DNA of 32,000 bases from Mucisphaera calidilacus (GCF_007748075.1 NZ_CP036280.1:60001-92000); one strand, 5' to 3'; positions 2,359 to 30,600 are shown, numbered from the stretch's first letter. Notes: generated from the letters alone by a model not told the origin. Program-made: numbers and translations.

Positions 2359-3660
2359 GTGAGGACCATCGCGGTCATCAACCAGAAGGGCGGCTGTGGC
2401 AAGACCACAGTCTCAATCAACATCGCCGCCGTCCTCGCCGCCAAGGGACACCGGACCCTCCTCGTCGACATGGACCCGCAGTCCCACTGCGCCCTCGGTC
2501 TCGCCGTCCCCGAAGAACAGATCGAACGCTCCGTCGCCGACGTCCTCGCCGCCGGACTCAACGGTTCCCTCGGCATCCCCGACGTCGTCTGGCAGGTCGC
2601 ACGCCACTTCGACCTCGCGCCCTCCACCATGGCACTCGCCGGCATCGAACAGAAACTCGCTCAGGCCACCGACAAGGACCGACGACTCGCGCACATCCTC
2701 GCCACCGTCGACGCCAAGTACGACTTCTGCATCATCGACTGCCCGCCCTCCATCGGGCTCCTCACCTTCAACGCACTCCGCGCCGCACGCGAGGTCGTCA
2801 TCCCCGTCGAGACCGGCTACTTCGCCATGCGCGGCGCCGTCAAGCAGCAACAGACCATCGAGATGCTCGCGCGACGCGTCGGGCACGTCGCACGCTTCAA
2901 GATCCTCCCCACCATGTACGACGTGCGGACCAAACTCGCCCGCGAAATCCTCTCCGAGCTCAAAAAACACTTCGGCGACAAGCTCCTGCCCGTCGTCGTC
3001 AACTTCAACGCCAAACTCAAAGAGGCCGCCTCCTTCGGCCAGCCCATCACCGAGTACGACGCCTCCTCACGCGGCATGTCCGACTTCGACCGGCTCGCCG
3101 ACTGGCTCCTCGAGAACGCCCCCGCTCAGCAGATCGCCGAGATGATGCCGGGCGAAGAACCCGCGCCCACCTCCAACCCCACACTCAGCCGCGCCGCCGA
3201 ACTCGTCGAACGCGCACGGGCCCTCACCTCACGCGCCGCCGCCATGCCCAACGGCGCTCCACCCACACCCGATCTCGCGACCGAGACCATCGCCGCCCAG
3301 CAGCCGAACAACCCCGTCGCCATCATCGACGAGCCCGCGCCGCCCGCCGACCCCACCCTCCAGGAAAAACTCGCGCGTATCTACGGCGTGCGAACCACCA
3401 GCCAGGGACTCCTCTTCGTCCAGCCGGCAAACGGCGCCGCGAAACTCGAAATCGCCGCCGACTTCAACAACTGGAACCCCGCACTCACGCCCATGAAACG
3501 CGACGACAACCTCGGCGTCTGGCAGGTCCAGGTGCCCCTCGCCCCGGGCGAATACAAGTACCGACTCGTCGCCGACGGACGCTGGTACAACGACCCCTAC
3601 AACCCCCGTGTCGAACACAACCCCTTCGGCGACCTCAACAACGTCGTCGCCGCAACCTAG
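2359..3660 (+). CDS. ParA/MinD-family P-loop ATPase fused to a C-terminal CBM48 / AMPK-beta glycogen-binding-like domain
   Basis: GTG start with AGAGGGA upstream. The ATPase core carries a deviant Walker A (KGGCGKTT, signature Lys present), an A' motif (LLVDMDPQ) and Walker B (FCIIDCPP). A Pro/Ala-rich linker of about 85 aa follows. The last ~93 aa (3379-3657) read LEIAADFNNWNP...GVWQVQVPLAPGEYKYRLVADGRWYNDPYNP...FGDLNNVV, which matches the AMPK1_CBM/CBM48 pattern. C-ending codon periodicity is strong throughout. Confidence 0.85.
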   Translation: MRTIAVINQKGGCGKTTVSINIAAVLAAKGHRTLLVDMDPQSHCALGLAVPEEQIERSVADVLAAGLNGSLGIPDVVWQVARHFDLAPSTMALAGIEQKLAQATDKDRRLAHILATVDAKYDFCIIDCPPSIGLLTFNALRAAREVVIPVETGYFAMRGAVKQQQTIEMLARRVGHVARFKILPTMYDVRTKLAREILSELKKHFGDKLLPVVVNFNAKLKEAASFGQPITEYDASSRGMSDFDRLADWLLENAPAQQIAEMMPGEEPAPTSNPTLSRAAELVERARALTSRAAAMPNGAPPTPDLATETIAAQQPNNPVAIIDEPAPPADPTLQEKLARIYGVRTTSQGLLFVQPANGAAKLEIAADFNNWNPALTPMKRDDNLGVWQVQVPLAPGEYKYRLVADGRWYNDPYNPRVEHNPFGDLNNVVAAT

Positions 3661-3669
3661 GCGGGAATC

Positions 3670-5187
3670 ATGGACGACGCCCGGACACGACAGGCCCTCG
3701 ACGAACTGGCCGAGGTCTTCCTGACCGGAACCAGCAACGACCAGACTGCACCCGAACCCACGCAAGCTAGCCCGACTCAGCCGCACCCCACCGAACTCAG
3801 ACTCTCCGGGACCGAACCCGACGACCAGCCCGTCAGCGACCGACCCCCCGTCGGACGCGAGGCCGTCATCCTCGGCAACCTCCCGGGACTCGGCGACGCA
3901 TGGCTCGGACAGTACGCCCAGCACCTCGCCGACGAACACGGGCCCGTCGCACTCCTCCACCTCGACCACGACGCCATCGACCTCGAGGTCATCGGCGAAC
4001 AGCAGACCAGCCGACCCCCGGGCAGGATCCCACCCGCCAACCGCGAACGCGACGACCTCACCCAGGCCCTCGACGAACTCGCCCTCGACGACAACAGCCC
4101 CGTCGCACGACTCCTCGTCCACGTCCAGCCCTACGCCGACGGCGAAATCCAGATCCAGGCCGTCGCTCGACTCGCCGCACTCGACCGCTGGACCCTCCTC
4201 TGCGGCGCCGACGACGCCGCCATCGTCGCCTGCTACCGCATGCTCAAACACCTGCTCGAGGCCACCGATCAGCCCGGACCACGACGCATCGGGCTCATGA
4301 TCCTTGGCAGCTCCGAGATCGAAGGCCTTGAAGCCGCCCGCAAAGTCCAGGCCGCCGCGCAGTCACACATGAACCGGCCCATCGACCTCGTCGGAAGCCT
4401 CGCACGCATGCGACCCGTCCACACACGACCCGTCGGGCGGTTCACGCCCGTCGACCGCATGTGGCTGCGACTCCGGGGCTGGCTCGACGACCTCGAACAC
4501 GACGAACTGCCCGAAACCACCAGCGACACAACCCGCGGAGACACCGCCATGACCCAGGCACAGCCCGCAGCCGACACCCCCACGACCACCAGCCAGCACG
4601 CCGACGACGACCTCGATCTCGACCTCAGCGCCGAACAGGCCGTCGCAGGACGAACCGCACGCTCACGCATCGGCGAACTCGCACAACCCATCGCCGAATC
4701 CGCCGCCACCAGCACAGCAGCCCCCGCCGCCGAAACCGCCGAACCCGATCCCATCGCGCTCATGATCGACAACCCCGACCTCGGGCTCCACGACGCCATC
4801 CGACTCGATGCCGTCTGCCCCCACCAGCCCGACGTCGCCATGCTCCTCGACGCCCACGGACGACTCCACCTCGTCCGCACTCACCGCCGAGCCCCGCGCT
4901 CCGCCGTCGCCGACAACACGCACACCGACCTCCCCGCACTCCACCAGGCCCTCCTCGACCTCGCCGACGCACGACGCTGGGCCAGGCAGCACCTCCAGCT
5001 CCTCCAGCTCACCCAGCGGCAGTGCCGCTTCGACCCCGACGCACGGCCCGTCATGCACCTCGCCACCGAACGCGCCGACCTCGGACTCGAACTCACCCAG
5101 CGCCTCGGCAACGCCCTCCGCCTCCATCTGCTCCAGCACGTCCGCCTCGGCGACGTCTCCGGCTGGCACCTCACACCCCTGAGCTGA
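3670..5187 (+). CDS. hypothetical acidic protein; the N-terminal half resembles a ParA/MinD-like fold with a degenerate P-loop (putative pseudo-ATPase partner)
   Basis: The ATG lies 9 nt after the parA-like stop, and C3 codon periodicity is strong over the whole frame. EAVILGNLPGLGDAWLGQYAQHLADEHGPVALLHLDHD aligns by eye to the ParA/MinD pattern i-av-s-KGGvGKTT-a-nLA-alA---g-kVLLvDlDpq, with both lysines lost. RLLVHVQP sits at the Walker B position, and WTLLCGADDAAIVACYRMLKHLLE...RRIGLMILGS sits at the position of the helix and sheet that follow Walker B. I do not recognise the C-terminal ~150 aa. Confidence 0.6.
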   Translation: MDDARTRQALDELAEVFLTGTSNDQTAPEPTQASPTQPHPTELRLSGTEPDDQPVSDRPPVGREAVILGNLPGLGDAWLGQYAQHLADEHGPVALLHLDHDAIDLEVIGEQQTSRPPGRIPPANRERDDLTQALDELALDDNSPVARLLVHVQPYADGEIQIQAVARLAALDRWTLLCGADDAAIVACYRMLKHLLEATDQPGPRRIGLMILGSSEIEGLEAARKVQAAAQSHMNRPIDLVGSLARMRPVHTRPVGRFTPVDRMWLRLRGWLDDLEHDELPETTSDTTRGDTAMTQAQPAADTPTTTSQHADDDLDLDLSAEQAVAGRTARSRIGELAQPIAESAATSTAAPAAETAEPDPIALMIDNPDLGLHDAIRLDAVCPHQPDVAMLLDAHGRLHLVRTHRRAPRSAVADNTHTDLPALHQALLDLADARRWARQHLQLLQLTQRQCRFDPDARPVMHLATERADLGLELTQRLGNALRLHLLQHVRLGDVSGWHLTPLS

Positions 5188-6177: not shown

Positions 6178-7218
6178 ATGACCATGACCGGCCGCGAACG
6201 TGTCCTCCGCACCCTTGAGTTCGACAGCCCCGACCGCGTCCCACGCGACCTCTGGCGGCTCCCCATCTGCGATCTCGTCCACGGCAAAGCCAACATCGAC
6301 GCCCTCCTCAACAAGTACCCCATCGATTTCGACGGACCCGACTTCACCAACCACAAACTCCAGGCCCTCACCCAAGGCGACCCCTACGCTGTCGGCCAGT
6401 ACACCGACGAGTGGGGCTGCGTCTTCGAGAACCTCAAAGCCGGGATCATCGGCGAAGTCAAGAACCCGCCCCTCACCGACTGGTCCCGACTCGAAGACCT
6501 TCGCCCGCCCGTCGAGTCCTACGACATCGACGTCGAAGCCATCAACGCCTCCTGCGCCGCCAAAGACAAGTTCCTCTGGGCCCACGCCTGCCCCCGACCC
6601 TTCGAACGCTGCCAGTTCCTCCGCGGCGCCGAAGAACTCTACATGGACCTCGCCGAACAACCCGACGAGCTGCTCCAGCTCCTCGACACCATCCACACCC
6701 ACGACTGCAAGGAACTCGACGCCTGGGCCAGAACCGACGTCGACTACCTCCGCTTCATCGACGACTGGGGCTCCCAGCATTCCCTGCTCATCAACCCCGA
6801 CACCTGGCGCAAGCTCTTCAAACCCATGTACGCCGAGTACGCCCGCATCGCCCACGACGCCGGCAAGAAGATCTTCATGCACTCCGACGGCCACATCTTC
6901 GACATCTACGAAGACCTCATCGAGATCGGCATCGACGCCATCAACTCCCAGCTCTTCTGCATGGACATCGAGGAGATCGGCAATCACTTCAAAGGCCGCA
7001 TCACCTTCTGGGGCGAGATCGACCGCCAGCACATCCTCCCCAACGGCACGCCCGACGACTGCCGCAACGCCGTCCAACGCGTCGCCGACGCCCTCTGGTC
7101 ACCCCAAGGCGGCGTCATCGCGCAGTTCGAAGCCGCCGAAGCACCCCTCGAAAACTACGACGCCGTCTACGACCAGTGGTCCCGGGTCGGTCAGGTCGCA
7201 AGCTCAAGACCCTCGTGA
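6178..7218 (+). CDS. uroporphyrinogen decarboxylase (URO-D) / MtaA-CmuA-like family protein, function unknown
   Basis: 346 aa. The overall pattern (N-terminal RERVLRTLEFDSPDRVP, central FIDDWGSQ...INP, HSDGHIFDIYEDLIEIGIDAINS) matches my recollection of URO-D-family TIM-barrel proteins. There are no heme or corrinoid genes nearby. Confidence 0.55.
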   Translation: MTMTGRERVLRTLEFDSPDRVPRDLWRLPICDLVHGKANIDALLNKYPIDFDGPDFTNHKLQALTQGDPYAVGQYTDEWGCVFENLKAGIIGEVKNPPLTDWSRLEDLRPPVESYDIDVEAINASCAAKDKFLWAHACPRPFERCQFLRGAEELYMDLAEQPDELLQLLDTIHTHDCKELDAWARTDVDYLRFIDDWGSQHSLLINPDTWRKLFKPMYAEYARIAHDAGKKIFMHSDGHIFDIYEDLIEIGIDAINSQLFCMDIEEIGNHFKGRITFWGEIDRQHILPNGTPDDCRNAVQRVADALWSPQGGVIAQFEAAEAPLENYDAVYDQWSRVGQVASSRPS

Positions 7219-7247
7219 CCACCACCCACAGAAACGATGTCCACCAC

Positions 7248-7274
7248 AAAAAAACCCCGTCATCACAGACGGGG
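7248..7274. terminator. bidirectional rho-independent terminator between the convergent URO-D-family gene and rplU
   Basis: A7 tract (7248-7254), stem CCCCGTC (7255-7261), loop ATCACA, stem GACGGGG (7268-7274), then a T-rich TTCGTGTTCGATTTCGTGTT. On the minus strand the hairpin is followed by U7. Confidence 0.8.
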
Positions 7275-7297
7275 TTCGTGTTCGATTTCGTGTTGTC

Positions 7298-7321
7298 GGG
7301 GCCGGGGGCCGGGGGCCGGGG
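7298..7321 (+). repeat. GGGGCC-type microsatellite / G-quadruplex motif G4-CC-G5-CC-G5-CC-G4
   Basis: Read directly: GGGGCCGGGGGCCGGGGGCCGGGG, with a further G5 run at 7332-7336 abutting the rplU stop codon (7337-7339). It lies in the rplU 3' UTR, where it is C-rich on the transcript. Confidence 0.7.
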
Positions 7322-7336
7322 TCAGGATGTCGGGGG

Positions 7337-7651
7337 TCAGCCCGCGATCTTCGTGATCTTGACCTCAACGTAGGGCTGGCGGTGGCCGCGACGACGGCGG
7401 TAGGTCTTGCGACGCTTGAACTTCACCACTTCAATCTTCTCGGCCCGACCCTCTTCCAGGATCTCCGCCTCGACCGAAGCGCCTTCCACGTACGGGGCAC
7501 CGACCTTCGCGGTCACGCCCTCGCCCATGAACACCACGCGGTCGAACGTCAGGGACTTCGCGTCCTCGGGCAACTCGCGCGGGTCGATGCGAATCGTGTC
7601 GCCCTCGGCGACCTTGATCTGGGTTCCGCTGTCTTCGATCACGGCGTACAT
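7337..7651 (-). CDS. rplU: 50S ribosomal protein L21
   Basis: MYAVIEDSGTQIKVAEGD...KFKRRKTYRRRRGHRQPYVEVKITKI is canonical L21. I chose the ATG at 7651, which has GAAGGA 7 nt upstream. The track ORF starts 5 codons earlier. Confidence 0.95.
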   Translation of the reverse strand: MYAVIEDSGTQIKVAEGDTIRIDPRELPEDAKSLTFDRVVFMGEGVTAKVGAPYVEGASVEAEILEEGRAEKIEVVKFKRRKTYRRRRGHRQPYVEVKITKIAG

Positions 7652-7764
7652 GGCGTCATCCTTCACGCAGTCAACAGCCCGAAGCGGGCCGAGCCGAGTA
7701 GTCTAGCAACTTCGCCGAGGCTTTCAACGACCGGCCCGAACCCGTGTCAGACTGTGCGCGCCAG

Positions 7765-7867
7765 AGGCCGGTTAACTGCATTTAACAGTCGTTTAACAGC
7801 GTCGGGCAGACCGATTCTGACGAAAACGGGTCATTTTAACACGATATAAACATGACCTATTTTAACA
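7765..7867 (-). promoter_or_regulatory. AT-rich island with four direct TGTTAAA(A)(T) repeats (minus-strand reading) plus a GTTAAC-centred imperfect palindrome; probable rplU promoter region
   Basis: On the plus strand, TTTAACA occurs at 7781-7787, 7792-7798, 7835-7841 and 7861-7867, and GTTAACT at 7771-7777. On the minus strand two copies read TGTTAAAAT, which resembles an extended -10 element (TGn + TAAAAT). The region is about 100 bp of high AT content in an otherwise GC-rich window. It lies upstream of rplU and immediately downstream of the lipoprotein operon stop (7883). Confidence 0.4.
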
Positions 7868-7882
7868 TTCGTTGGCCCGGAC

Positions 7883-8317
7883 TCACTGCGACCGGTCGGA
7901 ACGGATCTCCAGGTTCCAGTCTGACGCGAAGTAATCGGTCGCCGAGCCCCGCAGGAACTCCTGCACGTCCGGCTCCAGCTCCGCCGTCCGCCAGGCGCTG
8001 TCGTGCTTCACAGGCGTCCCGTCGCTCAGGAAGAACTGGTACCGGTACTGGATCGCGATCGCCTTCTTGCCCTCGACCAGGCGCACCGGGACGGTCACTT
8101 CCATCGGCTTGTCCGCGGTCGACGGCTTCACGATGTACTTGCCGGTACGGAGTTTACCGCGAAGGTCCTTCTCGCTGGCGATCACCTGCGACGTCTCCTC
8201 GCCCGCGACCCAGCCCGCCTTGATGCCCGGGTCGGTCTGGCAACCCGCCAGCATCGAGAGCCCCAGACCGGCCGCGAGGGCCATCATCCCAAGTCCGCTT
8301 CTTCCATACCTGCTCAT
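7883..8317 (-). CDS. YcfL-like (DUF1425-like) lipoprotein
   Basis: ATG with TAGGAG 7 nt upstream. It has a signal peptide with lipobox LAGC. AIAIQYRYQFFLSDGTPV...AWRTAELEPDVQEFLRGSA...ASDWNLEIR resembles the remembered YcfL pattern (Y-Y-f-W-D-G-pv ... W ... l-p ... A-dyrl-ir). Confidence 0.55.
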   Translation of the reverse strand: MSRYGRSGLGMMALAAGLGLSMLAGCQTDPGIKAGWVAGEETSQVIASEKDLRGKLRTGKYIVKPSTADKPMEVTVPVRLVEGKKAIAIQYRYQFFLSDGTPVKHDSAWRTAELEPDVQEFLRGSATDYFASDWNLEIRSDRSQ

Positions 8318-8395
8318 GACGAAACTCCTAAAAGGAAAAGTGCTGACAGCCTAATCCGCCGGCTCTCGGCCGGCCATATCCACTGTGGTCGAACC

Positions 8396-10048
8396 TCACT
8401 CGCTTTTTCCGCGATACGCCGGATGAATCTGCCCGAAGAGCCGCGCAAAGCCCGTCGTGCCCGGCAGGGGGGAGACCAATGACCGCCCGCCCTCGAGCAC
8501 GTGCAGCCCCACCCGGCCGTACTGGTCCTGGATGGTCAGCAGCCATTTCTCCCGGCGGTACATCTCGATCAGGCTGCCATAAGTAATATTCGGCACGGCG
8601 TTAACGACAAGCAGGTCGGCGAGCACCTCGTCGCTTGGCGGTCGGGCGTCGCGTCCGCCCGCCGGCAGGGGCTTGGCCGCGTCGGCGGTCAGGGGGATGG
8701 TCGCTTTCGCGTAAGGCGTGTGGTAACAAACCTTTCCGCTCGTCGCCCACGGCCGCTGCTCGATCGCGGGCCCGGTGGGCAGGCGCACGTAGCGCAGCTG
8801 CGCCCGCGGTCCGCTCGGCGGGTCGAGACCCGCCAACACCAGTCGTGAACCGGGTTTACCGCTGATGGTAAGCTCGACGGTCTTGCCCGGCTCCAGCTTG
8901 AGCGGCACGACGTAGTACCGCTGGGCCGTCGCTTCGCAGTAGCGCGTGTCGGCGCTGGCGGTCGCCTTGAGCATGGCGCCGCTCAGCGCGGTGACCAGCC
9001 CCGCGATCACGAGTGCCTCGTTGTCGTTGTTCGCCCCGGCCTGGGCCGCGGTCAGCCCGCCATAGACCATGGCCGTGCCCGCGATGGACTTGAAGACGCG
9101 GACGTCTTCGAGGTTGTTCCAGCGGTGGTCGGTGGCCATCTGGTTGACGTTGGTCACGACCGGGAAGGGTCCGAGGTCCTGCTCGTTGTGGCGGACGCGG
9201 AGCGTCGCGTTGTCGCTGAGGGTCCGGGGCCGGAACATGGCGATAGCGCCGTCCATGCCCTCGGCGGTCTTCTTCGGGCCGAGTCCCCAGGCGACGACGA
9301 GGACGGTGTTGTAGTCGCCGCCGCGGATCAGTTCGGTGGTCTCTTTGAGTTTCGGGTTGAGTCCGGCGGCGAAGGCGAGCATCTCGTTGGACTCGTCGGG
9401 CCGTCCGAGCTGGTGGTTGGCGATGCCGTTGAGCAGGTAGCCGAGGGTGTAGTTGGACGGCTGGGCGATGTAGCCGGCGTCGAGGTAGTCCTCGTCGGCG
9501 TCGGGATCGGTGGCGCGTTCGGCGAGCTCGACCTTGTCGAACTCCTCGTCGTCGTCGGCGAAGTCGCGGAGGTAAAACAGGGCGTTGTCGAGGGCGGCGC
9601 GGGCGTTGCCCCACTGTCCAAGCGAGGCCTGCTGGAGCCCGTAGTAGGTGAAGGCGAGGGCCTGCTCGAAGGGCTCGCCCTTCCAGATCTTGACGCCTTC
9701 GTTGACGACGACCGAGGCGACGGTGCGGTCGGCGTTGATGCCCTGGATGCGGAGGGTGTCGTAGAGCTCTTCGAAGGTGGTGTTGGCGGCGTGGGGGTAG
9801 CCGTCGGCCATGGTGAGCAGGGCGACGCGCATGCGGTCGAGGATGTAGTCGCGGTCGTCCCGGTCGTCTTCCATGTCGTCCTGGATCTCGACGCGGGCGT
9901 AGCCGTAGTTCCCGGAGTAGAGGGCGTTGTCGATCTCGATGCGGTGGGGGGAGGAGCAGGCGGCGAGCAGGAGGATCAGCAGCAGGCCGGCGAGGCTGGC
10001 GGCGCATCGTGCGAGGCGGCTTGCGTGATGGCGTTGGGCGTCGGCCAT
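8396..10048 (-). CDS. large (550 aa) lipoprotein with a TPR-like helical N-terminal half; hypothetical
   Basis: This is the internal ATG (10048) of the spurious 1475-aa track ORF 8396-12823. MADAQRHHASRLARCAASLAGLLLILLLAAC is a signal peptide plus lipobox (LAAC). The gene starts 14 nt after the stop of the upstream gene. TPR-like segments include FEQALAFTYYGLQQASLGQWGNARAALDNALFYL and YTLGYLLNGIANHQLGRPDESNEMLAFAAGLNP. Confidence 0.7.
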   Translation of the reverse strand: MADAQRHHASRLARCAASLAGLLLILLLAACSSPHRIEIDNALYSGNYGYARVEIQDDMEDDRDDRDYILDRMRVALLTMADGYPHAANTTFEELYDTLRIQGINADRTVASVVVNEGVKIWKGEPFEQALAFTYYGLQQASLGQWGNARAALDNALFYLRDFADDDEEFDKVELAERATDPDADEDYLDAGYIAQPSNYTLGYLLNGIANHQLGRPDESNEMLAFAAGLNPKLKETTELIRGGDYNTVLVVAWGLGPKKTAEGMDGAIAMFRPRTLSDNATLRVRHNEQDLGPFPVVTNVNQMATDHRWNNLEDVRVFKSIAGTAMVYGGLTAAQAGANNDNEALVIAGLVTALSGAMLKATASADTRYCEATAQRYYVVPLKLEPGKTVELTISGKPGSRLVLAGLDPPSGPRAQLRYVRLPTGPAIEQRPWATSGKVCYHTPYAKATIPLTADAAKPLPAGGRDARPPSDEVLADLLVVNAVPNITYGSLIEMYRREKWLLTIQDQYGRVGLHVLEGGRSLVSPLPGTTGFARLFGQIHPAYRGKSE

Positions 10049-23084: not shown

Positions 23085-24395
23085 TCAGGCGGCGGGGGGG
23101 GCATCGGGGTCGGCGTCGGGTTCGGAATCGGTGTCCTGGTCCTTCATCTTCTCGAGCAGCCACTGGTGTTCGCCGTACTTGTAGGCGGTGACCATGATGA
23201 AGGCGTAGAGGACGATGAAGGCGGCGAGGGCGTAGCGCCAGCGGATCTCGTAGGCGACCATGGCGCAGCCGATGGCGGCGAAGGAGGCGGCGGCGAGATA
23301 CATGACGAGGACGGCCTGCTTCACGGAGAGGCCGGCGCGTCGGAGCAGGTGGTGGATGTGCTGGGAATCGGGGCTGAAGAGGGGCTGGCCGCGCATTTTT
23401 CGGCGGAAGATGGCCAGCGAGGTGTCGGTGATGGGGACGGCGAAGGTGATCAGCGAGGCGGTCACGAGGAGCAGGGCCTTGCCGGGGACGGTGGCGAACA
23501 TGAGGATCGTGGCGATGCAGAGGTAGCCGAGCAGCAGGGAGCCGGCGTCGCCCATGAAGATGGTGGCGGGGTTGAAGTTGTAGGGCAGGAAGCCGAGGAC
23601 GGCCCCGATGATGGCGAGGCACATGACGATGCGGATCGGGTGAGAGAGGACGCCCTCGGCGACGATCTGGGCGTCCTGGGTCTGGAGGGCGACAAGGGCG
23701 GCGATGATCAGAAAGCCGGTGGCGGAGATGACGGTGACGCCGCCGGCGAGGCCGTCGAGGCCGTCGATGAGGTTCAGGGCGTTGCAGGCGCCCAGGACGA
23801 GGAAGGCGATGAGCGCGGCGCCGAGCCAGTACTCGAGCCCGTAGGGCGCGGTCATGATGGCGTCGGGGATGGGGAAGGCGAAGCCGGTGGTCTGTTCGGT
23901 GGCGACGGTGAGTTCGTGGACGATCTGGGTGCCGACGTTCTCGTGGGCGAGCATGGCGGCTCCGAAGAGCTGGCCGGCGACCTTGATGCGCGGGCTGAGG
24001 GAGTAGACGTCGTCGATGAGCCCGGTCAGGCAGATGATGCCGGCGCCGAAGATGACCCACCCGGGGAAGTTGACGTAGGAGAGGCTGACGAGGGTCATGG
24101 ACTCGTGGGGCTCGGTGAAGTAGCCCATGAAGACGCCCGCGAGCCATCCGAAGAAGATGGCGACCCCGCCGAGGTAGGCGACGGCCTGGATGTGGTTCTT
24201 GCGGACGAGGTCGGGCTTGTCGACGACGTTGTTGTGGGTCGCGAGGCTGCGCATGATCGGGGTGAGGATCAGCGCGACGATGAAGGCGACGAAGAAGACG
24301 GGCATGTAGGGGGCGATGACCTCGGAGAAGGTCAGGGTGTTCTCCGGGGCGAGTGTGGCGGCCGGGGCGTCCTGGGCGATCAGGCTGATCATCAC
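23085..24395 (-). CDS. glycosyltransferase family 4 polyprenyl-phosphate sugar-1-phosphate transferase (WecA/MraY superfamily)
   Basis: Multi-pass membrane protein with the motifs LIDDVYSLSPRIK, NALNLIDGLDGLAGG and IFMGDAGSLLLGY. The start is either GTG at 24395 (GTGA overlap with the epimerase stop) or ATG at 24392. Confidence 0.85.
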   Translation of the reverse strand: MMISLIAQDAPAATLAPENTLTFSEVIAPYMPVFFVAFIVALILTPIMRSLATHNNVVDKPDLVRKNHIQAVAYLGGVAIFFGWLAGVFMGYFTEPHESMTLVSLSYVNFPGWVIFGAGIICLTGLIDDVYSLSPRIKVAGQLFGAAMLAHENVGTQIVHELTVATEQTTGFAFPIPDAIMTAPYGLEYWLGAALIAFLVLGACNALNLIDGLDGLAGGVTVISATGFLIIAALVALQTQDAQIVAEGVLSHPIRIVMCLAIIGAVLGFLPYNFNPATIFMGDAGSLLLGYLCIATILMFATVPGKALLLVTASLITFAVPITDTSLAIFRRKMRGQPLFSPDSQHIHHLLRRAGLSVKQAVLVMYLAAASFAAIGCAMVAYEIRWRYALAAFIVLYAFIMVTAYKYGEHQWLLEKMKDQDTDSEPDADPDAPPAA

Positions 24396-25396
24396 TTCTT
24401 CTCCACGGTGGTGACCTCTTGGGTGCTGTTCTCGGCCTGTCGGACCAGTTCACGGATGGTCTGTTCGAGGGTGTAGCGGGGCCGGAAGCCGATGGCCTCG
24501 CGGAGCCGCTGGGTGCTGGGGGCCCGTTGGGGTGTTTCTTCGAAGCCGGGGGGGTAGGCCTGCTCGTAGGGGACGAACTCGATGTCCGAACCGGACTCGG
24601 CGAGTCGGACGACGAGGTCGGCGAGTTGGCGGATGGTGATCTCGTTCTCGCTGCCGAGGTTGTAGGTGCGGCCGTGGGTCTCGGGCGTGGTGACGAGGGC
24701 GATCATGGCATCGACCACGTCGCGGACGTCGCAGAAGGCCCGGGTCTGGTTGCCGTCGCCGAAGACCCGGAGCGGCTGGTTGTTCACGGCGCGCTCGACG
24801 AAGCGGGGGACGACCATGCCGTAGTGCCCGACCTGCCGGGGGCCGATGGTGTTGAAGAGGCGGACGATCACGGCGGAGAGGTCGCGTTGGCGGACGGCGT
24901 CGAGGACGAGGTGTTCGTCGAGGGCCTTGGCCATGCCGTAGGCCCAGCGTGAGGAGGTGGTGGGGCCGAAGACGAGGTCGCCTTGTTCGGTGAGGGGCAG
25001 GTTTTCGGATCGCCCGTAGACCTCGGAGGAGGAGGCGACGAGGAGGGTGGCGTTGTGTCGGGTGGCGGCGTCGACGATGCGTGCGGTCTCGTCGACGTTG
25101 TTGCGGATCATGCCGGTGGGGTCTTCGAGGACCTTCTGGACGCCAACGGAGGCGGCGAGGTGGAAGACGGCGTCGGCGTGGTCCCAGAGTGCTTGGTCGT
25201 GGTCGTGGTCGAGGGCGTCGGCGGCGTCGGCCTGGGTGAGGGTGCAGCGGTCGCCGAGGAGGTGGTTGATGTTCTCGGCGCGTCCGGTGGAGAGGTTGTC
25301 GAGGATGCGGACGTCCCAGCCCTCGCGGAGGAGGGCTTCGGCGAGGTGGGAGCCGATGAAGCCGGCCCCGCCGGTGATGATCGCGGTGGCCGCCAC
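24392..25396 (-). CDS. NAD-dependent epimerase/dehydratase (extended SDR, nucleotide-sugar modifying)
   Basis: GTG start. TGGAGFIGSHL Rossmann motif, SSSEVYG and YGMAK (YxxxK) catalytic motifs. Confidence 0.85.
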   Translation of the reverse strand: MAATAIITGGAGFIGSHLAEALLREGWDVRILDNLSTGRAENINHLLGDRCTLTQADAADALDHDHDQALWDHADAVFHLAASVGVQKVLEDPTGMIRNNVDETARIVDAATRHNATLLVASSSEVYGRSENLPLTEQGDLVFGPTTSSRWAYGMAKALDEHLVLDAVRQRDLSAVIVRLFNTIGPRQVGHYGMVVPRFVERAVNNQPLRVFGDGNQTRAFCDVRDVVDAMIALVTTPETHGRTYNLGSENEITIRQLADLVVRLAESGSDIEFVPYEQAYPPGFEETPQRAPSTQRLREAIGFRPRYTLEQTIRELVRQAENSTQEVTTVEKK

Positions 25397-25425: not shown

Positions 25426-27612
25426 TCAGGCCGAGAGTCGTTCGGTGCCCGAGGTGCCCTGGTAGTCGTAGTAGGCCTTGTAGTTCTTCCGGAAGTAGCC
25501 GCCTGCGGAGGACTGGACCCAGTTGAGGATGATGCCCAGGACCTGAGCCTTGCCGGTCTCGAGCTGGCGGATCATGCGGTCGGCCATGCCGCGCTTGTCG
25601 GCGCCGGCTCGGAGGACGACGGCGACGGCGTCGACCGATCGTGCCATGAGCTGGCTGTCGGAGCTGAGCAGGGCGGGGGGTGCGTCGAGGATGATGAGGT
25701 CGTAGGAGGCCTTGAGCTGTTCGATGAGGTTGGCGAAGTTCTGGCCGTCGAAGAGGTCGGAGACGGTGCCGGTGATCTTGCCGGCGGTGACGACGTCGAG
25801 GCCGGAGGCGTCGAGTTTGGTGGTGACGTTTTCGATGGGCGTTTCGCCTCGGAGGACGTTGGCCAGGCCCATGTCGGTGTCGAGACCGAGCAGGGCGGCG
25901 AGGTGCGGCCTGCGGAAGTTGGCTTCGAGCAGGATGACCCTGCGGTGGTTCTGGGCGAGGCTGGTGGCGAGGTTGTGGGCGATGGTGGTGGTGCCGGCGC
26001 TGGCCTGAGGCGAGGTCATGAGCAGGCTCTTGTGGTCGGCCTGCTCCATGCGGCCGAGCAGGGCGGTGCGGACCTGCCGGAACTGTTCGGTGATCAGCCC
26101 GTTGGCGTCGCGTTCGACGACGCGGTCGATGGTGCCCGAGCCGGAGAGGTCCTCGGTGGCGTCGGGGAGCATGCCCAGGAGGTTGCCGCGGGTGAGCATG
26201 CGGACGTCGGTGGGCGAGAGGACGCGCTGGTCGAGGAGCTCGCGGACGAAGATCACGCCGGTGATCAGGCCGAGCAGGGCGATGGTGACGCCCGGGACGA
26301 TGACGATGAAGCGGGGGAAGGTAAGTTCGGCTTCGCTGGGCCGGGTGATCTGGATGAACTGGAGGCGTGCCTCGATGAGGCTCTGGTTGACGGCGATCTG
26401 GCTGATGTTGCTCTGGACGTCGACGAGTCTTGCCTGCTGGCGGTCGAGGTCTTTCTCGAGCTGGTCGTAGCGGGCCAGGCGGTCGGTGAGGTCGATCATC
26501 TTGCGGGAGGCTTCTTCCATGCGGGGCATGAGGCCCTCGATGGTCCCGCGGATGGACTCGACGATCTTGCTGGCGGACTCGAGGCGTCCGGCCTGCATCT
26601 CGCGAGCGAGCCGGTTCTTCTCGATGTCCTTTTCCTGTTCCAGGGCGGTGATCTGGGCGTCGATGAGCTTGATCTGGGGGTGGGAGTCGCCGAAGCGCGA
26701 GAGCGCGGCGCGCTTGTTCTCGCGGAGCATGGTGATCTGCTGGGTCTGGCGGGCGATGTTGGGGGTCTGCTCGAGTTCGGCTTCGAGGTCGGGGGTGATC
26801 TGGACCTGCCCCTGACTCTGGGCCTCGGCGAGCTGCTCGTACTGGGCGGTGGCCTGTTCGAGGTTGAGCTTGAGCTCGGTGATCTGGGAGTTGAGGATGT
26901 CGAACTCCTGGGCGGCGGCGTTGCCGTCGCGGCGGAGGGATTCGATGTTCTCGTTGGTGAGGAAGGTACTGCGCTGGCGTTCGAGGCGGTCGATGTCTTC
27001 CTGGAGGCGTTGTTCCTGGGTGCGCAGCGCGGTGAGGGCCTGGTTGTCGTTCTGGCCGCGCTCGATGCGCTGGATGTTCTCGTAGGCGTCGGCGACGGCG
27101 TCGACGATCGGCCCGGCTTCCTCGGGGATGCGTGTCCAGACGCCCAGCTCGATGAGCTTGGTGTTGCGTCGGGTGGTGATGACGATGTGCTCGTTTGCGA
27201 GGGCCCGGCGGGCGTCTTCGGGGGTCTCGAACTGCTGGTACCAGTTGGTGCTCTGGACGGAGGGCTGCTCGATGACGCGTTGCAACAGCTCGTCGTTGGT
27301 GAGGAAGGGGATCTGGGAGTTGATGTCCATCTCGATCGCCTGCGTGGCGCGGTTGCCTTCCTGGCCGACCTCGGTGGCGTCGGTGGCGGGAGCCTGGTAG
27401 CGCAGGAGGACGGTCGAGGTGAACTGAGGCGACGAGGACTTGAGGATGAACCAGAGGATCAGCCCGACGACGATGCCGATGCCGCCGGCGATAACCAGGG
27501 GCAGGACGTTGGCGCGGAGGACGCGCACCGGGTCGATGGGACGGAAGCGCAGCGAGGCGGGTTGTTGCGTTGGCTGCTGGGGTGTGGTGCTTCCGAGTGG
27601 GTTTGCGTTCAT
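25426..27612 (-). CDS. Wzc/Wzz-type polysaccharide co-polymerase with a BY-kinase-like C-terminal domain whose Walker A lacks the lysine
   Basis: N-terminal TM segment, a long coiled-coil periplasmic region, then a second TM segment (FIVIVPGVTIALLGLITGVIFV). The cytoplasmic domain has SPQASAGTTT at the Walker A position (GKT expected), ILLEANFRRP at Walker A', and an intact IILDAPP Walker B. The C-terminal Tyr cluster is YFRKNYKAYYDY. Confidence 0.8.
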   Translation of the reverse strand: MNANPLGSTTPQQPTQQPASLRFRPIDPVRVLRANVLPLVIAGGIGIVVGLILWFILKSSSPQFTSTVLLRYQAPATDATEVGQEGNRATQAIEMDINSQIPFLTNDELLQRVIEQPSVQSTNWYQQFETPEDARRALANEHIVITTRRNTKLIELGVWTRIPEEAGPIVDAVADAYENIQRIERGQNDNQALTALRTQEQRLQEDIDRLERQRSTFLTNENIESLRRDGNAAAQEFDILNSQITELKLNLEQATAQYEQLAEAQSQGQVQITPDLEAELEQTPNIARQTQQITMLRENKRAALSRFGDSHPQIKLIDAQITALEQEKDIEKNRLAREMQAGRLESASKIVESIRGTIEGLMPRMEEASRKMIDLTDRLARYDQLEKDLDRQQARLVDVQSNISQIAVNQSLIEARLQFIQITRPSEAELTFPRFIVIVPGVTIALLGLITGVIFVRELLDQRVLSPTDVRMLTRGNLLGMLPDATEDLSGSGTIDRVVERDANGLITEQFRQVRTALLGRMEQADHKSLLMTSPQASAGTTTIAHNLATSLAQNHRRVILLEANFRRPHLAALLGLDTDMGLANVLRGETPIENVTTKLDASGLDVVTAGKITGTVSDLFDGQNFANLIEQLKASYDLIILDAPPALLSSDSQLMARSVDAVAVVLRAGADKRGMADRMIRQLETGKAQVLGIILNWVQSSAGGYFRKNYKAYYDYQGTSGTERLSA

Positions 27613-27630: not shown

Positions 27631-30600
27631 TCAGCCCTGCTGGAGCGTCTTGAGACGCTGCTGTGCCTTTTCGAGCGTTTCATCGTCGCCCTCGGTCTGC
27701 GCGTCGCGGATGGCGTCTTCGAGGAGGTCCATGGCGGCGGCGGTGGAGCCGAGGTCGGTGAGGACGATGGCCAGATGATACTGATTCACGGGCAGACGGC
27801 TAAATGAGATGCTGCGCTCGAGGGTTCGTCGCGCCTCTTCGAGCTGCCCGTTCTGGTACTGGACCCAGCCGAGGGTGTCGAGGGTGTTGGCGTTCTGGGG
27901 CGCGAGGTTGACGGCCCGCTGGGCGAATTCGACGGCGGCGCTGGTCTCGCCGAGGTCGTTGCCCAGGAGATAGGCGAGGTTGTTGAGCGTCAGGATGTCG
28001 CTGGGCGCGATCTCAAGGACTTTTTCGTAGGCGACGCGAGCGTCCTCGAAGGCCTCGGAGAGCTGGAGCGCCCGGCCGAGCAGGGTGAGCAGCTGGAAGC
28101 GGAGGCCCTGGTCGGCGGTCTCGACCTGTCCCTCGAGGGCGCGGAGTCGTGAGACGGCGTCGTCGTAGCGGCCGTCGTTGGTTTCGAGACGGGCGGCGGC
28201 GAGTTGCGACCAGAGCGGCTCGCGGGCCTGGGTGTTGTCGACGAGGAGGGTGATGGCGGTGGGGACGTCGAACGACTTCTGGACGCGGTCGGCGATGGCG
28301 TTCATCTCGCCATAGGACCGGGCGCGTTCCATGGCCTTGGCGAAGACGCGTTGGGCGGCCTCGCGCTGGCCGGTCTGGGCGAGGGCGGCGCCGCGGATGC
28401 CCTGGATGGTGGGGTCGTTGGCGGTGACGTTGGGGTTCTGGTCGATGAGCCGCAGCGCGAGGTCGGCGCGGTTGTTGTCGACCTGCAGCGCGAGCAGGGC
28501 GCGGATGTTGGCGGCGCTGGGGTCGATCTGGACGGCCTGGTTCAGGGCCTGAACGGCCTCGGGGAGACGGTTCTCGCGGACGGCGACGCGGGCGGCGTAG
28601 CGGAGCCAGCGGGTGTCGTTGGGGAAGGTCTCGATGCCGTCGTTCACGGTTGCTCGTGCGAGGGCGTAGTCGCCTGTGAGCATGTACATGGCGTAGAGCT
28701 TCTCGCGGGCCTGGACCTGGCGTGCGTCGCGGTTGAGGACGTTCTGCAGCTCGCGGATGGAGCCGTTGTAGTCGCCCGAGCGTTTGCGGATGTCCGAGAG
28801 CAGCAGGCGTGCCTGGATCTGCGTGGGGTCGAGGGTCAGGGCGCGGTCGAGGTCGACGAGGGCCGCGTCGGGCTGGTCGAAGCCGGTGAGATTGGCCCTG
28901 CGGACGAGGCCCGGGATGCTGTCGGGGTTGATGTCGAGGGCCTGGTTGACGTAGTCGAGGGCCAGTTCCCGGTCGCCTTCCTTGAGGGCGAGTTCGGACT
29001 TGAGCAGGATGATGGTGTCGGTCTGGTTGTCCTGGTTTTCGAGGAAGGCGCGGGCGTCCTCGTTGCGTTCGGCGCGGAGGTAGGACTCGACCAGCCGGAG
29101 CGTCACGGGTGCCTCGTCGGGGAAGGCCCGGTGGAGTTTCTCGTAGAGGGCGGTGGAGAGGTCGCTCTCGCCACGGCTAAAGAGCAGGGCGGCGAGTTCG
29201 CGGGACATGGGCATGCTGGCCGGGTCTTCGAGGGTGATGCCCTGCCGGTAGGCCTGGACGGCGGCGGGCAGGTCCTGCCGCTGGAGCCGGTAGCGGGCGA
29301 GGAGCTGGTAGTCCTGCGCGGCGACCTCGTTGCCGAGGGTCGCGATGTAGCGTTGGATCTCGCGTTCGCCCGCTTCGGCCTGCTCGTTGCGGAACAGGAC
29401 GTTGGCGAGGGTGGCGACGTTGGCGAGCTTCATGCCGTCGTCGGCGATGATCTGCTCGGCGAGGGTGATCGCCTCGTCCTTGCGGTCGTCGGTGGTGGAG
29501 AGCATGCTGGCGAGGGCGCGTTTGTTGGCGTAGTCGGCCGGCTCTTCCTCGGCGATGCGTTCGCGGGCCTCCATGGCGAGGTCGGCGCGGCCGTGCTGGG
29601 TCTCGTAGAGCAGGTAAAGGTTGCGGATGCCGGGGTCTTTGGGCTGGAGCTGGTAGGCCCGGCGGAGGTGTTCGAGGGCCTCGTCGGCGCGTCCCTGCTC
29701 GTTGCGGATGGCGGCGAGCAGCCGGAGGGCCTTGAGGTTGTTGCCGCGTTGGGAGAGGGCCTGGTCGAGCTCGGCGGCGGCCTGGTCGTAGAGCCCCTGC
29801 TGGCGGTAGATCTCGGCGAGGAGGGTGCGGATCTCGGGGTTGACGCGGTCGATCTCCAGGCCCTCGTTGAGCTCGACGGTCGCTTCCTCGTAGCGTTGCT
29901 GGGCGGCGAAGACGCGGGCGCGGAAGAACTTGCCCTGCACCTTGTCGAGGTTGCGCTGGCGTGCGACCTCGGCGACCTGCATGGCGCCGTCCCAGTCCTG
30001 CTGGATCATGGCGAAGTCGAACTTGAGCTCGACGACGGCGGGGTTGTCGGGTTCGAGTGCCTCGGCCTCGGCGATCGCCTCGCGGGCGTTCTCGATGTCG
30101 CGTTGGCGCATGGCGTTCTGGGCCTCGGCGCGGGCGCGGGCGAAGGGTGTGGTCTGGACGAGGCCGGAGACGACCTCGCTGAGGCTGGACTCGTCGATCA
30201 GGGCGCGGAGCACCTGGACGACCTTGGCGTCGCCACCCGAGGATTCGTAGGCATCGATGAGTTGGGTCTGCCGGGCCTCGTCTTCGAGCAGCGGGATGAG
30301 CTGGCCGAGGATCTGGGGGTTGTTGGGCGTGAGCGCGTTGGCTTCGAGCAGGGCGTCGCGGGCCTCGTCGTTGCGGTCGAGTGCCTTGAGCAGCCGGACG
30401 GCGATCATGCCGGGCGGCTGGTTGTTGGCGCGGGCGTTCTCGAGGAGCGGCTCGAGCGCGGCCTCCTTCTCGGCCCGGCTGCCATACTGAAGAACGATCT
30501 GGATCAGCGCGGTGCGTGCGAGGGTGTTCTCGGGGTCGCTGGCGAGGAGGTACTCGATGTGTCGGCGTGCGTCGGCGGGGTTCTGCTCGGCCAGGTAGAC

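Follow-up and report, generated by a model that had tools for sequence, protein, structure and literature searches.

The ParA family of ATPases generally follows a simple rule, in which the partner protein is encoded next door and contacts the ATPase through its N-terminus, usually by means of a stimulating peptide that is positively charged and disordered (PMC10241942). In the McdA-McdB system, a ParA-type ATPase adjoins a fast-evolving, partly disordered partner. The nucleoid is the presumed matrix, the partner binds the cargo, and this cargo, which possesses a protein shell, is a large cytoplasmic body that must be spaced out and inherited. Storage granules of PHB/PHA are attached to the nucleoid by proteins of the PhaM/PhaF type and are thereby inherited equally by the daughters; these tethers, histone-like proteins or phasins, are passive and lack an ATPase. 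The pair of genes described here resembles McdA-McdB in its general plan, with an ATPase beside a fast-evolving, partly disordered partner, and presumably in its matrix and in the size of its cargo. It differs from McdA-McdB in that the cargo-binding module, a CBM48 domain, is part of the ATPase itself, in that the partner is a predicted pseudo-ATPase with an acidic N-terminal helix, and in that a granule of polysaccharide is predicted as the cargo. With PhaM and PhaF it would share the concept of a carbon-storage granule attached to DNA, but it would use an ATP-driven ParA and glycogen. We propose, with a probability of roughly 40%, that the two genes form a conserved module in which a Soj-type ParA binds both the nucleoid and alpha-glucan (glycogen), so that granules are distributed in the cell, and in which the gene 2 protein regulates this process. 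To judge from sequence and modeled structure, the position of the cargo-binding domain, in the ATPase rather than in the partner, and the pseudo-ATPase nature of the partner would set the pair apart from known systems. A search of the literature found neither a report of a ParA-type ATPase combined with CBM48 nor a description of a ParA-CBM48 protein with a pseudo-ATPase partner, in agreement with the first-pass annotation of this DNA, in which no characterized system with such an architecture could be named.

The two genes form a unit on the + strand, at positions 2359-5187 of the window, by which we mean the entire 32-kb stretch of DNA from Mucisphaera calidilacus (Phycisphaerae, Planctomycetota) that was analyzed. 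Their features are listed in Table 1. When the open reading frames were determined again, the coordinates, the frames and the 9-nt spacer all proved to be as first described, and the claims of the first-pass annotation that concern sequence features (the motifs, the linker, the CBM48 and the acidic gene 2 product) were likewise upheld. The gene 1 product is 100% identical to an NCBI entry of M. calidilacus named "AAA family ATPase / Soj-like protein", and the gene 2 product is 100% identical to an annotated protein of the same organism. No terminator-like sites were detected on the + strand between or within the two genes, and the short spacer suggests that they are co-translated.

Table 1. 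Features of the two-gene unit, with positions counted from the first nucleotide of the window.
Feature	Residues (aa)	Position (nt)	Strand	Basis or remarks
Gene 1, ParA-CBM48 fusion, 433 aa		2359..3660	+	GTG start; stop included (3658-3660); ORF and Pfam domains
Soj-type ParA ATPase core	1-255	2359..3123	+	AAA_31 2.9e-47; PDB sequence matches
Deviant Walker A, KGGCGKTT, with signature Lys10 and Lys15	10-17	2386..2409	+	Family conservation
Pro/Ala-rich linker, 85 aa	256-340	3124..3378	+	38% Pro+Ala; pI 4.4
Invariant helix within the linker, NPTLSRAAELVERARALTSRAAAM	272-295	3172..3243	+	Homologue alignment
CBM48 / AMPK-beta-type carbohydrate-binding domain	341-433	3379..3657	+	Pfam match 350-431
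Intergenic spacer, 9 nt, GCGGGAATC		3661..3669	+	Read from the sequence
Gene 2, 505-aa acidic partner protein, unannotated family		3670..5187	+	ATG start
Conserved N-terminal helix, MDDARTRQALDELAEVFLTGT	1-21	3670..3732	+	Model helix 4-19; candidate ParA-contact peptide
Predicted degenerate MinD/ParA-like (SIMIBI-fold) domain	60-280	3847..4509	+	pLDDT mostly 84-94; Foldseek
Pseudo-P-loop, GNLPGLGDAW	69-78	3874..3903	+	Between strand 1 and helix 1; no lysine
Acidic disordered linker	281-355	4510..4734	+	pLDDT 28-42; pI 4.1; length very variable
C-terminal globular domain, new family	356-505	4735..5184	+	pLDDT 91; pTM 0.86

By its motifs and profile scores, gene 1 encodes a member of the ParA/MinD group of deviant Walker A ATPases. 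The intact core that had been noticed was recovered with all of its motifs, which besides the Walker A sequence and its signature lysine are LLVDMDPQ (aa 34-41) and FCIIDCPP (aa 123-130). Profile searches with AAA_31, CbiA, AMPK1_CBM and CBM_48, which had been recommended as a check, gave significant matches to gene 1 for all four models; AAA_31 scored 161 bits (2.9e-47; cut-off 27) and CbiA 72.6 bits (3.7e-20; cut-off 25.4). The top PDB sequence matches of the core are chromosomal ParA/Soj proteins, namely 8ray (1.2e-47), Thermus thermophilus Soj (1.5e-41) and Helicobacter pylori Soj (2e-39). BLASTP identity to these proteins is 35-40%, slightly lower than the 39-51% by which the Soj proteins resemble one another. 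Throughout the gene 1 family (n=205), D37, D39, D127, R190, K219 and K221 are invariant, and the two Walker lysines are retained nearly everywhere (K10 in 202/205 members, K15 in 201/205). R190, present in 202 of the 205, aligns with the arginine in the sequence MYDGRT of T. thermophilus Soj, which we take to be Soj R189. Judging by these invariant catalytic and DNA-binding residues, the ATPase looks active. Gene 1 resembles the Soj of ParA(Soj)-ParB-parS systems in its best core matches, its deviant Walker A, its signature lysine and its equivalent of Soj R189. Unlike Soj, it continues into a linker with an invariant helix and then into a CBM48.

That the C-terminus of gene 1 follows the CBM48/AMPK1_CBM pattern, as was supposed from inspection, is borne out by scores above the gathering cut-offs of both Pfam models: 34.4 bits against 26.8 for AMPK1_CBM (PF16561; 2.6e-8, aa 358-431) and 33.8 bits against 22.4 for CBM_48 (PF02922; 4.3e-8). 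Among PDB entries the domain is most similar to the CBMs of AMPK beta1/beta2 (7e-8), followed by SEX4, pullulanase and GlgB. In the family of 205 the near-invariant residues of the domain are W372, R402, W409, F/Y423 and N427. The first three of these, each retained in 193-197 members, align with W100, K126 and W133 of AMPK beta1, at which mutation abolishes or weakens glycogen binding (PMC6274970). From the profile scores and the conservation of the predicted sugar-binding residues, the CBM48 looks functional. It belongs to the same domain subfamily as the CBM of AMPK beta and the CBM48 of plant SEX4, with the sugar-binding Trp/basic/Trp/Asn set conserved, and in all three proteins a non-catalytic CBM48 is carried by an enzyme other than a glycoside hydrolase and directs it to alpha-glucan (a prediction for gene 1). 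What differs is the fusion partner, which is a bacterial P-loop positioning ATPase in gene 1, as against a kinase scaffold in AMPK and a phosphatase in SEX4. All of the best 120 homologues of gene 1 (58-83% identity) possess both domains. Relatives are encoded in 552 stretches of species-representative genomes, and the best 80 of these 552 all match through the CBM. On this sequence evidence the ParA-CBM48 fusion is genuine and under selection.

The gene 2 protein was described as acidic and 505 aa long, which its pI of 5.07 confirms. It has no sequence match in Pfam, NCBIfam, PADLOC or the PDB, including a profile search of the PDB. However, it has relatives: a library of 1.84 billion proteins contains 1413 cluster representatives at E<=1e-3, ranging from 359 to 1105 aa, so that the gene 2 family, like the gene 1 family, is large. 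The claim that its N-terminal half mimics the ParA/MinD fold may be divided in two. At the level of predicted structure it stands. When the AlphaFold model of the central domain was compared with the PDB using Foldseek, the best matches were the MinD-like proteins FlhG (1.2e-6) and FleN (6e-5), falling within a range of 1e-6 to 7e-4 for this group; NifH, HypB, ParA, McdA, Soj and MinD followed. TM values in this comparison were about 0.45-0.48, and the order of strands and helices in the model fits the SIMIBI fold. At the level of sequence profiles the claim finds no support, with no family match and a profile-profile comparison (hhalign) between the gene 1 family and gene 2 that yielded a probability of only 0.1. 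Thus, in the predicted structure, the central domain is MinD/ParA-like in fold, with sequence similarity not detected. Gene 2 is unlike FlhG and FleN in several respects: it shows no detectable sequence similarity to them, lacks the Walker A lysines and the Walker B aspartate, is extended by further disordered stretches and a C-terminal domain, and occurs in a non-flagellar context. The reported absence of both P-loop lysines is a property of the whole family, where KGGxxGK[ST] occurs in 0/158 members and the corresponding stretch reads GNLPG[FL]xGPW. The Walker B position reads LLVHVQP, with a histidine where ParA has aspartate. Among the best-conserved stretches of gene 2 is its extreme N-terminus, where 141/158 members share the motif M[DE][DE]xRTxQALDxLADLFLTG; the Sedimentisphaerales version of this helix is RGIESISHLFLSQ. 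In the C-terminal domain the conserved positions form LHL strands with invariant histidines, and the residues H400, H441, H463, H486, W437, T448 and R450 are invariant. The best fold matches of this domain, none of them significant, are SfsA, EndoMS/NucS, restriction enzymes, and Cas4-like and phage nucleases (E>=0.02 in the PDB, 0.002 in BFVD, TM<=0.49), a weak signal of the PD-(D/E)xK nuclease type. Assignment as a PD-(D/E)xK nuclease was considered but is not supported, since no canonical (D/E)xK motif is present and the fold matches are non-significant.

The prediction that the two genes would be neighbors in other genomes was borne out across the Phycisphaerales and in three loci of the Sedimentisphaerales, where divergent copies of gene 2 occupy the same position. 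Gene 2 lies directly 3' of gene 1 in 55 of 84 loci, or about 58 when three further loci are included that our script had flagged on account of overlapping or frameshifted ORFs. In about 18 of the 84, mostly from a distant clade with 46-48% identity, gene 2 was not found nearby. Gene 2 is thus tightly linked to gene 1, and the pair is conserved in the Phycisphaerae yet not universal. The exceptions lend some weight to the notion that the genes are merely neighbors and that gene 2 encodes an independent, degenerate nuclease-like or DNA-binding protein. In addition to the distant clade with no adjacent gene 2, the two genes of one Poriferisphaera locus (L008) lie on opposite strands at a distance of about 6 kb, and in Poriferisphaera strain ZRK32 there is no gene 2 within 8 kb of gene 1. 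We regard this explanation as very improbable. Adjacency has been maintained in some 58 loci across deep divergence, in spite of the fast evolution of gene 2 itself, the 9-nt spacer speaks for co-translation, gene 2 shares a predicted fold with the ATPase next door, and its N-terminal motif is highly conserved, as in the partners of ParA proteins.

Returning to the module proposed above, we envisage the following mechanism, of which the first steps are suggested by conserved residues. Gene 1 would bind ATP and form the usual sandwich dimer, which would use the conserved Arg190 together with a basic patch for non-specific binding to DNA. The two CBM48 modules of each dimer would be attached by flexible tethers about 85 aa long, and their AMPK-beta-type Trp/Arg/Trp sites would grip glycogen particles; with two tethered modules per dimer, a multivalent granule could be held on a carpet of ParA. 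More speculatively, the gene 2 protein would regulate ATP hydrolysis or release, acting by way of its N-terminal helix, its nucleotide-dead MinD/ParA-like domain or the two together, and possibly docking on the invariant helix of the ParA linker. In the model its anatomy is that of a partner: the N-terminal helix is conserved, the linkers are acidic and disordered, and the MinD/ParA-like fold is without Walker lysines. As an outcome, granules would be dispersed across the nucleoid and passed to both daughters, either by a ParA gradient (diffusion ratchet) or by tethering. The suggestion that these genes position glycogen granules was made in the first-pass annotation and is in part supported by the CBM48, the linkage and the dead P-loop. 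Against it may be set the character of the N-terminal peptide of gene 2, which with a net charge of about -3, one conserved Arg/Lys and a predicted helix is atypical, such peptides usually being basic and disordered. An ATPase bound to the cargo would also be unusual, at odds with the standard ratchet, in which the activator is on the cargo. Further counterpoints are that the ParA likeness of gene 2 is confined to the modeled fold and that some loci have no gene 2 nearby. Finally, the neighborhood of the pair and the distribution of ParB, which are considered below, count against it.

The conserved neighbors of the pair are housekeeping genes, encoding HldE, LpxK, Maf, DnaJ and ClpB. There is no genomic link between the pair and glycogen metabolism; genes of this pathway are unlinked, with a GH57 branching enzyme close by in just 1 of 84 loci. 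This context would suit a pair that positions or regulates another structure, such as the division site in bacteria that lack FtsZ (in the manner of PomXYZ or MipZ) or an envelope complex, in which case the CBM48-like domain would serve to bind proteins or to sense a different glycan instead of holding glycogen cargo. The CBM of AMPK does make protein contacts as well, and we know of no mechanism for placement of the division site in Phycisphaerae. The very high conservation across the class and the envelope-related neighbors (HldE, LpxK, Maf) fit such a role, as do two bactofilin genes located 3' of gene 2. But the bactofilin genes are limited to one lineage, no known division proteins are linked to the pair, and the most conserved positions of the gene 1 CBM are precisely the glycogen-binding residues of AMPK beta, which would be hard to explain if no alpha-glucan were bound. 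We therefore judge a role at another structure to be improbable. An anti-phage defense system was also considered and set aside: PADLOC returned weak P-loop matches for gene 1 and none for gene 2, and the context is one of syntenic housekeeping genes.

Another explanation is that the Phycisphaerae use gene 1 as their ParA (Soj) for chromosome partitioning, together with an unlinked canonical ParB and parS. The CBM48 would then be an addition, by which glycogen hitch-hikes on segregating chromosomes or by which ParA is sequestered or regulated in response to the status of the carbon store, as by the CBM in AMPK, and gene 2 would be a lineage-specific regulator of ParA analogous to TipN, PadC or MipZ-type modulators. 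The similarity of the core to chromosomal ParA/Soj, with its invariant equivalent of Soj R189, and the near-universal presence and high conservation of the gene 1 protein in the class are consistent with this explanation. Further, a canonical ParB exists in Phycisphaerae, with an LGRGL N-terminal motif, a GERRWRAA box, an HTH and ParB_C, and on long contigs ParA accompanies it in 0/6 neighborhoods, whereas among 68 ParA loci taken from other bacteria as controls, 60 have an adjacent ParB. This ParB lies 4-7 kb upstream of gene 1 orthologues in five loci (L037, L040, L041, L065 and L075), and in strain ZRK32 a distance of about 58 kb separates the two on a 5.2-Mb chromosome. A ParB with no adjacent ParA, so close to gene 1 orthologues, makes chromosome segregation a serious rival and suggests that segregation may be the role of gene 1, instead of or in addition to granule positioning. 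On the other hand, the genome of L039 (Phycisphaeraceae) has, at a distance of 6 kb from its ParA-CBM48, a second ParA that is plain and Soj-like (KGGVGKTT) and with 38-44% identity to Soj is at least as close to it as gene 1 is. The relatives of this plain ParA are likewise without an adjacent ParB, so that an orphan ParB does not point to gene 1 in particular. Scanning of the 32-kb window confirmed the reported lack of a ParB-like gene and of parS near the pair, with no ParB-like ORF and no canonical 16-mer parS at <=3 mismatches, a search that a lineage-specific parS would escape. The pair thus differs from ParA(Soj)-ParB-parS in having no adjacent ParB, no such parS in the window and a partner unrelated to ParB, and a ParA with a conserved partner of its own next door usually belongs to a dedicated system that is not chromosomal. 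On balance, it seems rather unlikely that partitioning accounts for gene 1.

If granule positioning is correct, this may be the first case of active positioning for sugar-storage granules. It is possible, although we say this only tentatively, that the pair is the first ParA/MinD system to position polysaccharide granules, that it is distributed throughout the Phycisphaerae, and that in it the CBM48 resides in the ATPase and the regulator is a paralogue with the ParA/MinD fold that no longer binds nucleotide. In a bolder version the same ATPase would also drive ParB-dependent chromosome segregation. If this were true, these bacteria, whose division does not involve FtsZ, would physically couple the inheritance of their carbon store to that of their chromosome.

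The linker of gene 1 was correctly recognized as Pro/Ala-rich and about 85 aa in length. Among homologues it varies in both sequence and length, apart from its internal helix, a feature that did not appear in the first-pass annotation. In an alignment of 21 diverse homologues, R278-A286, L289 and R292 of this helix are invariant, and distant clades possess a related motif, SxxA[DE]EL[LV]xxA, at the same position of the linker.

Gene 1, which encodes a fusion of a ParA-type ATPase to a CBM48 module, and gene 2, which encodes an acidic protein, are separated by 9 nt, with no terminator-like site found between them on the plus strand. Their products are 100% identical to annotated proteins of M. 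calidilacus (Phycisphaerae, Planctomycetota), from whose chromosome the window comes, and the ORF coordinates (see table) bear out the two-gene unit with this spacer that a first-pass annotation of the sequence had proposed. Residues 1-255 of gene 1 form a complete deviant-Walker-A ATPase, matching AAA_31 (2.9e-47) and CbiA (3.7e-20) in Pfam. The closest PDB sequences are chromosomal ParA/Soj proteins (8ray, 1.2e-47; T. thermophilus Soj, 1.5e-41; H. pylori Soj, 2e-39), the match to MinD being much weaker. BLASTP gives 35-40% identity to these Soj proteins, compared with 39-51% among Soj proteins of different phyla. In an alignment of 205 distinct members of the gene 1 family, the signature Lys10, the Walker Lys15, Asp37, Asp39 and Asp127 are essentially invariant, as are Lys219, Lys221 and Arg190, the last of these being aligned with the arginine through which Soj binds DNA. 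Gene 1 is a genuine member of the ParA/MinD ATPase family, and the intact core claimed for it earlier is upheld by the two Pfam matches and the invariant catalytic residues. Because of the conserved residues, the enzyme is very probably active and its ATP dimer probably binds DNA non-specifically.

Coordinates of the gene pair and of related features at homologous loci (L numbers; first two rows, window positions)
Feature	Position	Strand	Remarks
Gene 1	2359-3660	+	GTG start; stop 3658-3660; 433 aa
Gene 2	3670-5187	+	ATG start; 505 aa
ParB	L037:2995-4143	-	near ParA-CBM48
ParB	L040:2765-4126	-	near ParA-CBM48
ParB	L041:2937-4451	-	near ParA-CBM48
ParB	L075:2875-4077	-	near ParA-CBM48
ParB	L065:384-1349	-	near ParA-CBM48
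Plain Soj-like ParA	L039:1-717 (ORF continues to 1623)	-	cut by locus edge
Two bactofilin genes	L081:14517-15690	+	directly after gene 2 homologue; also L082, L083; one Phycisphaeraceae lineage

The core is followed by a Pro/Ala-rich (38%) linker, residues 256-340. Within it lies a helix (residues 272-295, LSRAAELVERARAL..R) in which polar and apolar residues alike are invariant across diverse homologues; a related motif occupies the equivalent linker position in distant clades. This pattern points to a specific protein contact, made by a linker that would be more than a plain spacer. The C-terminal 90 residues score 34.4 bits against AMPK1_CBM (cut-off 26.8) and 33.8 bits against CBM_48 (cut-off 22.4). 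In the PDB they are closest to the AMPK beta1 and beta2 modules that bind glycogen (E ~1e-7), with SEX4, a pullulanase and branching enzymes next. With both Pfam models above cut-off, the CBM48 match, a check that had been asked of these ~90 residues, is significant, and the earlier reading of a Pro/Ala-rich linker leading into an AMPK-beta-type module stands. Trp372, Arg402 and Trp409 align with W100, K126 and W133 of AMPK beta1, whose mutation abolishes or weakens glycogen binding (PMC6274970). These three residues are kept in 193-197 of the 205 family members, and Phe/Tyr423 and Asn427 are likewise among the most conserved CBM48 positions. Since the sugar-binding residues both align with those of AMPK beta1 and are conserved, binding of alpha-glucan by gene 1 is well supported by sequence.

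The fusion and its partner are widespread. ParA and AMPK1_CBM domains are present in all of the best 120 homologues of gene 1 (58-83% identity). Relatives are encoded in 552 stretches of species-representative genomes, the best 80 of which derive from Phycisphaerales, Sedimentisphaerales and MAGs with various labels. The gene 2 family is also large: a library of 1.84 billion proteins contains 1413 of its cluster representatives at E<=1e-3. When 84 loci with gene 1 were checked, gene 2 was directly 3' of it in 55 by script count and adjacent also in 3 others, flagged for overlapping or frameshifted ORFs; the pair therefore does occur as neighbours across related genomes. Poriferisphaera contributes one locus in which gene 2 is ~6 kb off on the other strand, and at 6 loci the contig end is too near to judge its presence. 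No gene 2 was seen in 18 loci, mostly those of a distant clade of gene 1 relatives (46-48% identity), plus strain ZRK32. Three loci from Sedimentisphaerales have, at the same position, a very divergent gene 2 whose N-terminal motif is equivalent (RGIESISHLFLSQ), whose central domain is degenerate and which has the C-terminal domain too. That genes 1 and 2 are neighbours with no functional tie seems to us very improbable. In the distant clade (L059, L063-L066, L070) the gene 3' of ParA-CBM48 is not gene 2 and encodes a secreted protein of ~220 aa, conserved inside the clade, with a C-terminus that by eye resembles a hydrophobic anchor of the PEP-CTERM type.

Gene 2 has no family match in Pfam, NCBIfam, PADLOC or the PDB (phmmer and profile searches). 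An AlphaFold model based on 18 homologues (mean pLDDT 75) predicts a helix at the N-terminus (residues 4-19) and two confidently modelled domains (60-280 and 356-505); the stretches 22-54 and 283-355 are acidic and disordered. With the first domain, Foldseek retrieved MinD/ParA (SIMIBI) ATPases, namely FlhG (E=1.2e-6), FleN, NifH, HypB, ParA, McdA, Soj and MinD, and the order of strands and helices agrees with the SIMIBI fold. The loop at the P-loop position reads GNLPGLGDAW; the motif conserved in 158 members of the family is GNLPG[FL]xGPW, and none of them has KGGxxGK[ST]; the Walker B position is occupied by His, not Asp. The first-pass annotation had described a ParA-like half devoid of P-loop lysines. 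The missing lysines and the predicted fold agree with this description, but a profile-profile comparison with the gene 1/ParA family (hhalign) gave no similarity (probability 0.1), and for this reason the likeness of gene 2 to ParA is a model-based, fold-level one.

The N-terminal motif M[DE][DE]xRTxQALDxLADLFLTG occurs in 141 of these 158 gene 2 family proteins; its net charge is acidic, and it has one conserved Arg/Lys. In this ATPase family, the peptides that have been described from partners are basic and disordered (PMC10241942). The first disordered region of the homologues (alignment columns ~120-210) contains in most of them the linear motifs LxGPxPIRLxPK and P.LRLH amid variable surroundings, which may be docking motifs; M. 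calidilacus keeps only the P.LRLH type (TELRLSG, window ~3790-3810). Modelled alone, the C-terminal domain (4735-5184) reached pLDDT 91 and pTM 0.86. Its fold matches were all non-significant and were enriched for PD-(D/E)xK nucleases (SfsA, EndoMS/NucS, restriction enzymes, Cas4-like proteins, phage nucleases), and no (D/E)xK motif was found in it. It has four invariant histidines (H400, H441, H463 and H486), one on a helix and the other three within LHL motifs of neighbouring strands, and a near-invariant Cys within RCPHQP, which suggests a metal or ligand site. We regard it as a new domain, not assigned to any family.

ParA/MinD ATPases are a general bacterial means of placing chromosomes, plasmids, carboxysomes, chemoreceptor arrays, flagella and the divisome. 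In the systems characterised so far the cargo is, to our knowledge, always linked through a separate partner protein. The gene 1/gene 2 module would work in the same general way. It differs from McdAB, PomXYZ and similar systems in that the cargo-binding domain is on the ATPase, not on the partner, and in that the partner, judged by its modelled fold, would be a pseudo-ATPase. Our preferred reading, to which we assign a probability of about 0.4, is that ParA dimers bound on the nucleoid hold glycogen particles. Each dimer would grip a particle with its two tethered CBM48 modules and might behave as a ratchet, and gene 2, interacting with it, would control ATP turnover or release, so that granules would be spread through the cell and inherited. 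This scheme draws on computed results: what the domains are, how well the catalytic and sugar-binding residues are conserved, the fusion of ATPase and CBM48, and its linkage to gene 2. The functions are inferred from them.

The 32-kb window contains no ParB and no match to canonical parS, in keeping with the earlier statement that neither a ParB-like gene nor a parS-like palindrome was nearby; its short palindromes were rejected as parS, as they sit within coding sequence. These failed operon tests argue against a ParABS reading of the window. A canonical ParB (LGRGL N-terminus, GERRWRAA box, HTH and ParB_C) does lie 4-7 kb upstream of gene 1 orthologues, on the opposite strand, in five loci that represent three or more lineages. 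Phycisphaerae ParB often has a small HisKA/HATPase_c protein encoded divergently upstream of it. None of six Phycisphaerae ParB genes on long contigs (L084-L089) has a ParA-family neighbour within 6-10 kb, and in ZRK32 ParB and the gene 1 orthologue are ~58 kb apart. A ParB without an adjacent ParA is unusual for bacteria: in a control set of 68 ordinary ParA loci, taken from other bacteria, 60 had an adjacent ParB. Gene 1 is therefore a candidate for the cognate ParA of this orphan ParB, and could be a chromosomal ParA with a glycogen-linked add-on. If it served in this capacity, instead or as well, it would bear on how segregation is coupled to metabolic state in FtsZ-less planctomycetes. 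However, one Phycisphaeraceae chromosome (L039) encodes, 6 kb upstream of ParA-CBM48, a second, plain ParA (KGGVGKTT) that resembles Soj no less than gene 1 does. Metagenomic proteins closely related to it (L090-L098), ParAs of 270-300 aa, likewise have no adjacent ParB. We regard the chromosomal role as somewhat unlikely. The plain ParA of L039 is in frame, with no stop between, with an N-terminal stretch that by eye resembles an SGNH/sialate-esterase domain.

The other genes conserved around the pair have housekeeping roles: HldE, LpxK and Maf upstream and, in ~27 loci, DnaJ and ClpB downstream. An anti-phage function was rejected on the basis of the PADLOC search and this syntenic context. 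L081 alone has a GH57 branching enzyme, 4 kb upstream of ParA-CBM48, so that genomic context gives the glycogen reading no support. A general link to bactofilins was likewise rejected: two such genes lie 3' of gene 2 in L081-L083 only, and a profile search of the other loci was empty. The pair might position another structure, such as the division site, with the CBM put to a different use, but we think this unlikely.

Full-text literature searches, several of them noisy because 'para' and 'mcda' also match unrelated words, turned up no paper describing a ParA fused to CBM48 or naming glycogen as the cargo of a ParA. If glycogen positioning is correct, a ParA that carries its own glycogen-binding domain would make storage polysaccharide a new class of cargo, with a different wiring in which the ATPase is tethered to its own cargo and the regulator is a pseudo-ATPase. 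The module is widespread, well defined and directly testable, its function being a matter of inference, and it provides a concrete, genetically tractable handle on the organisation and inheritance of bacterial glycogen. Cultured hosts include Mucisphaera, Poriferisphaera and Phycisphaera.

Two further features of the window may be recorded. A 728-aa protein (25429-27612, minus strand) with a C-terminal ParA-like/AAA_31 domain (residues 531-698) lies between an NAD-dependent epimerase (24395-25396, minus) and a 1416-aa TPR protein (27634-31881, minus); this cluster is probably of the tyrosine-autokinase type for polysaccharide export and unrelated to the pair. The GC skew is extreme, from -0.25 to -0.37 on the left and from +0.2 to +0.4 on the right of window 1-32000, changing sign at ~7000-8800. 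The third-codon-position skew, ~0.5-0.75 in magnitude, depends on the chromosome strand and not on the coding strand. In a sister Mucisphaera locus (L001) the skew is ~-0.4 throughout, with no switch within 8 kb. Neither dnaA nor dnaN is in the window. Genes on both sides face the switch, including rpsB-tsf, efp, truD and a class II tRNA synthetase on the minus strand. Under the usual rule that the leading strand is G-rich, the switch would be an origin with all genes head-on; the gene orientation suggests a terminus with a C-rich leading strand.
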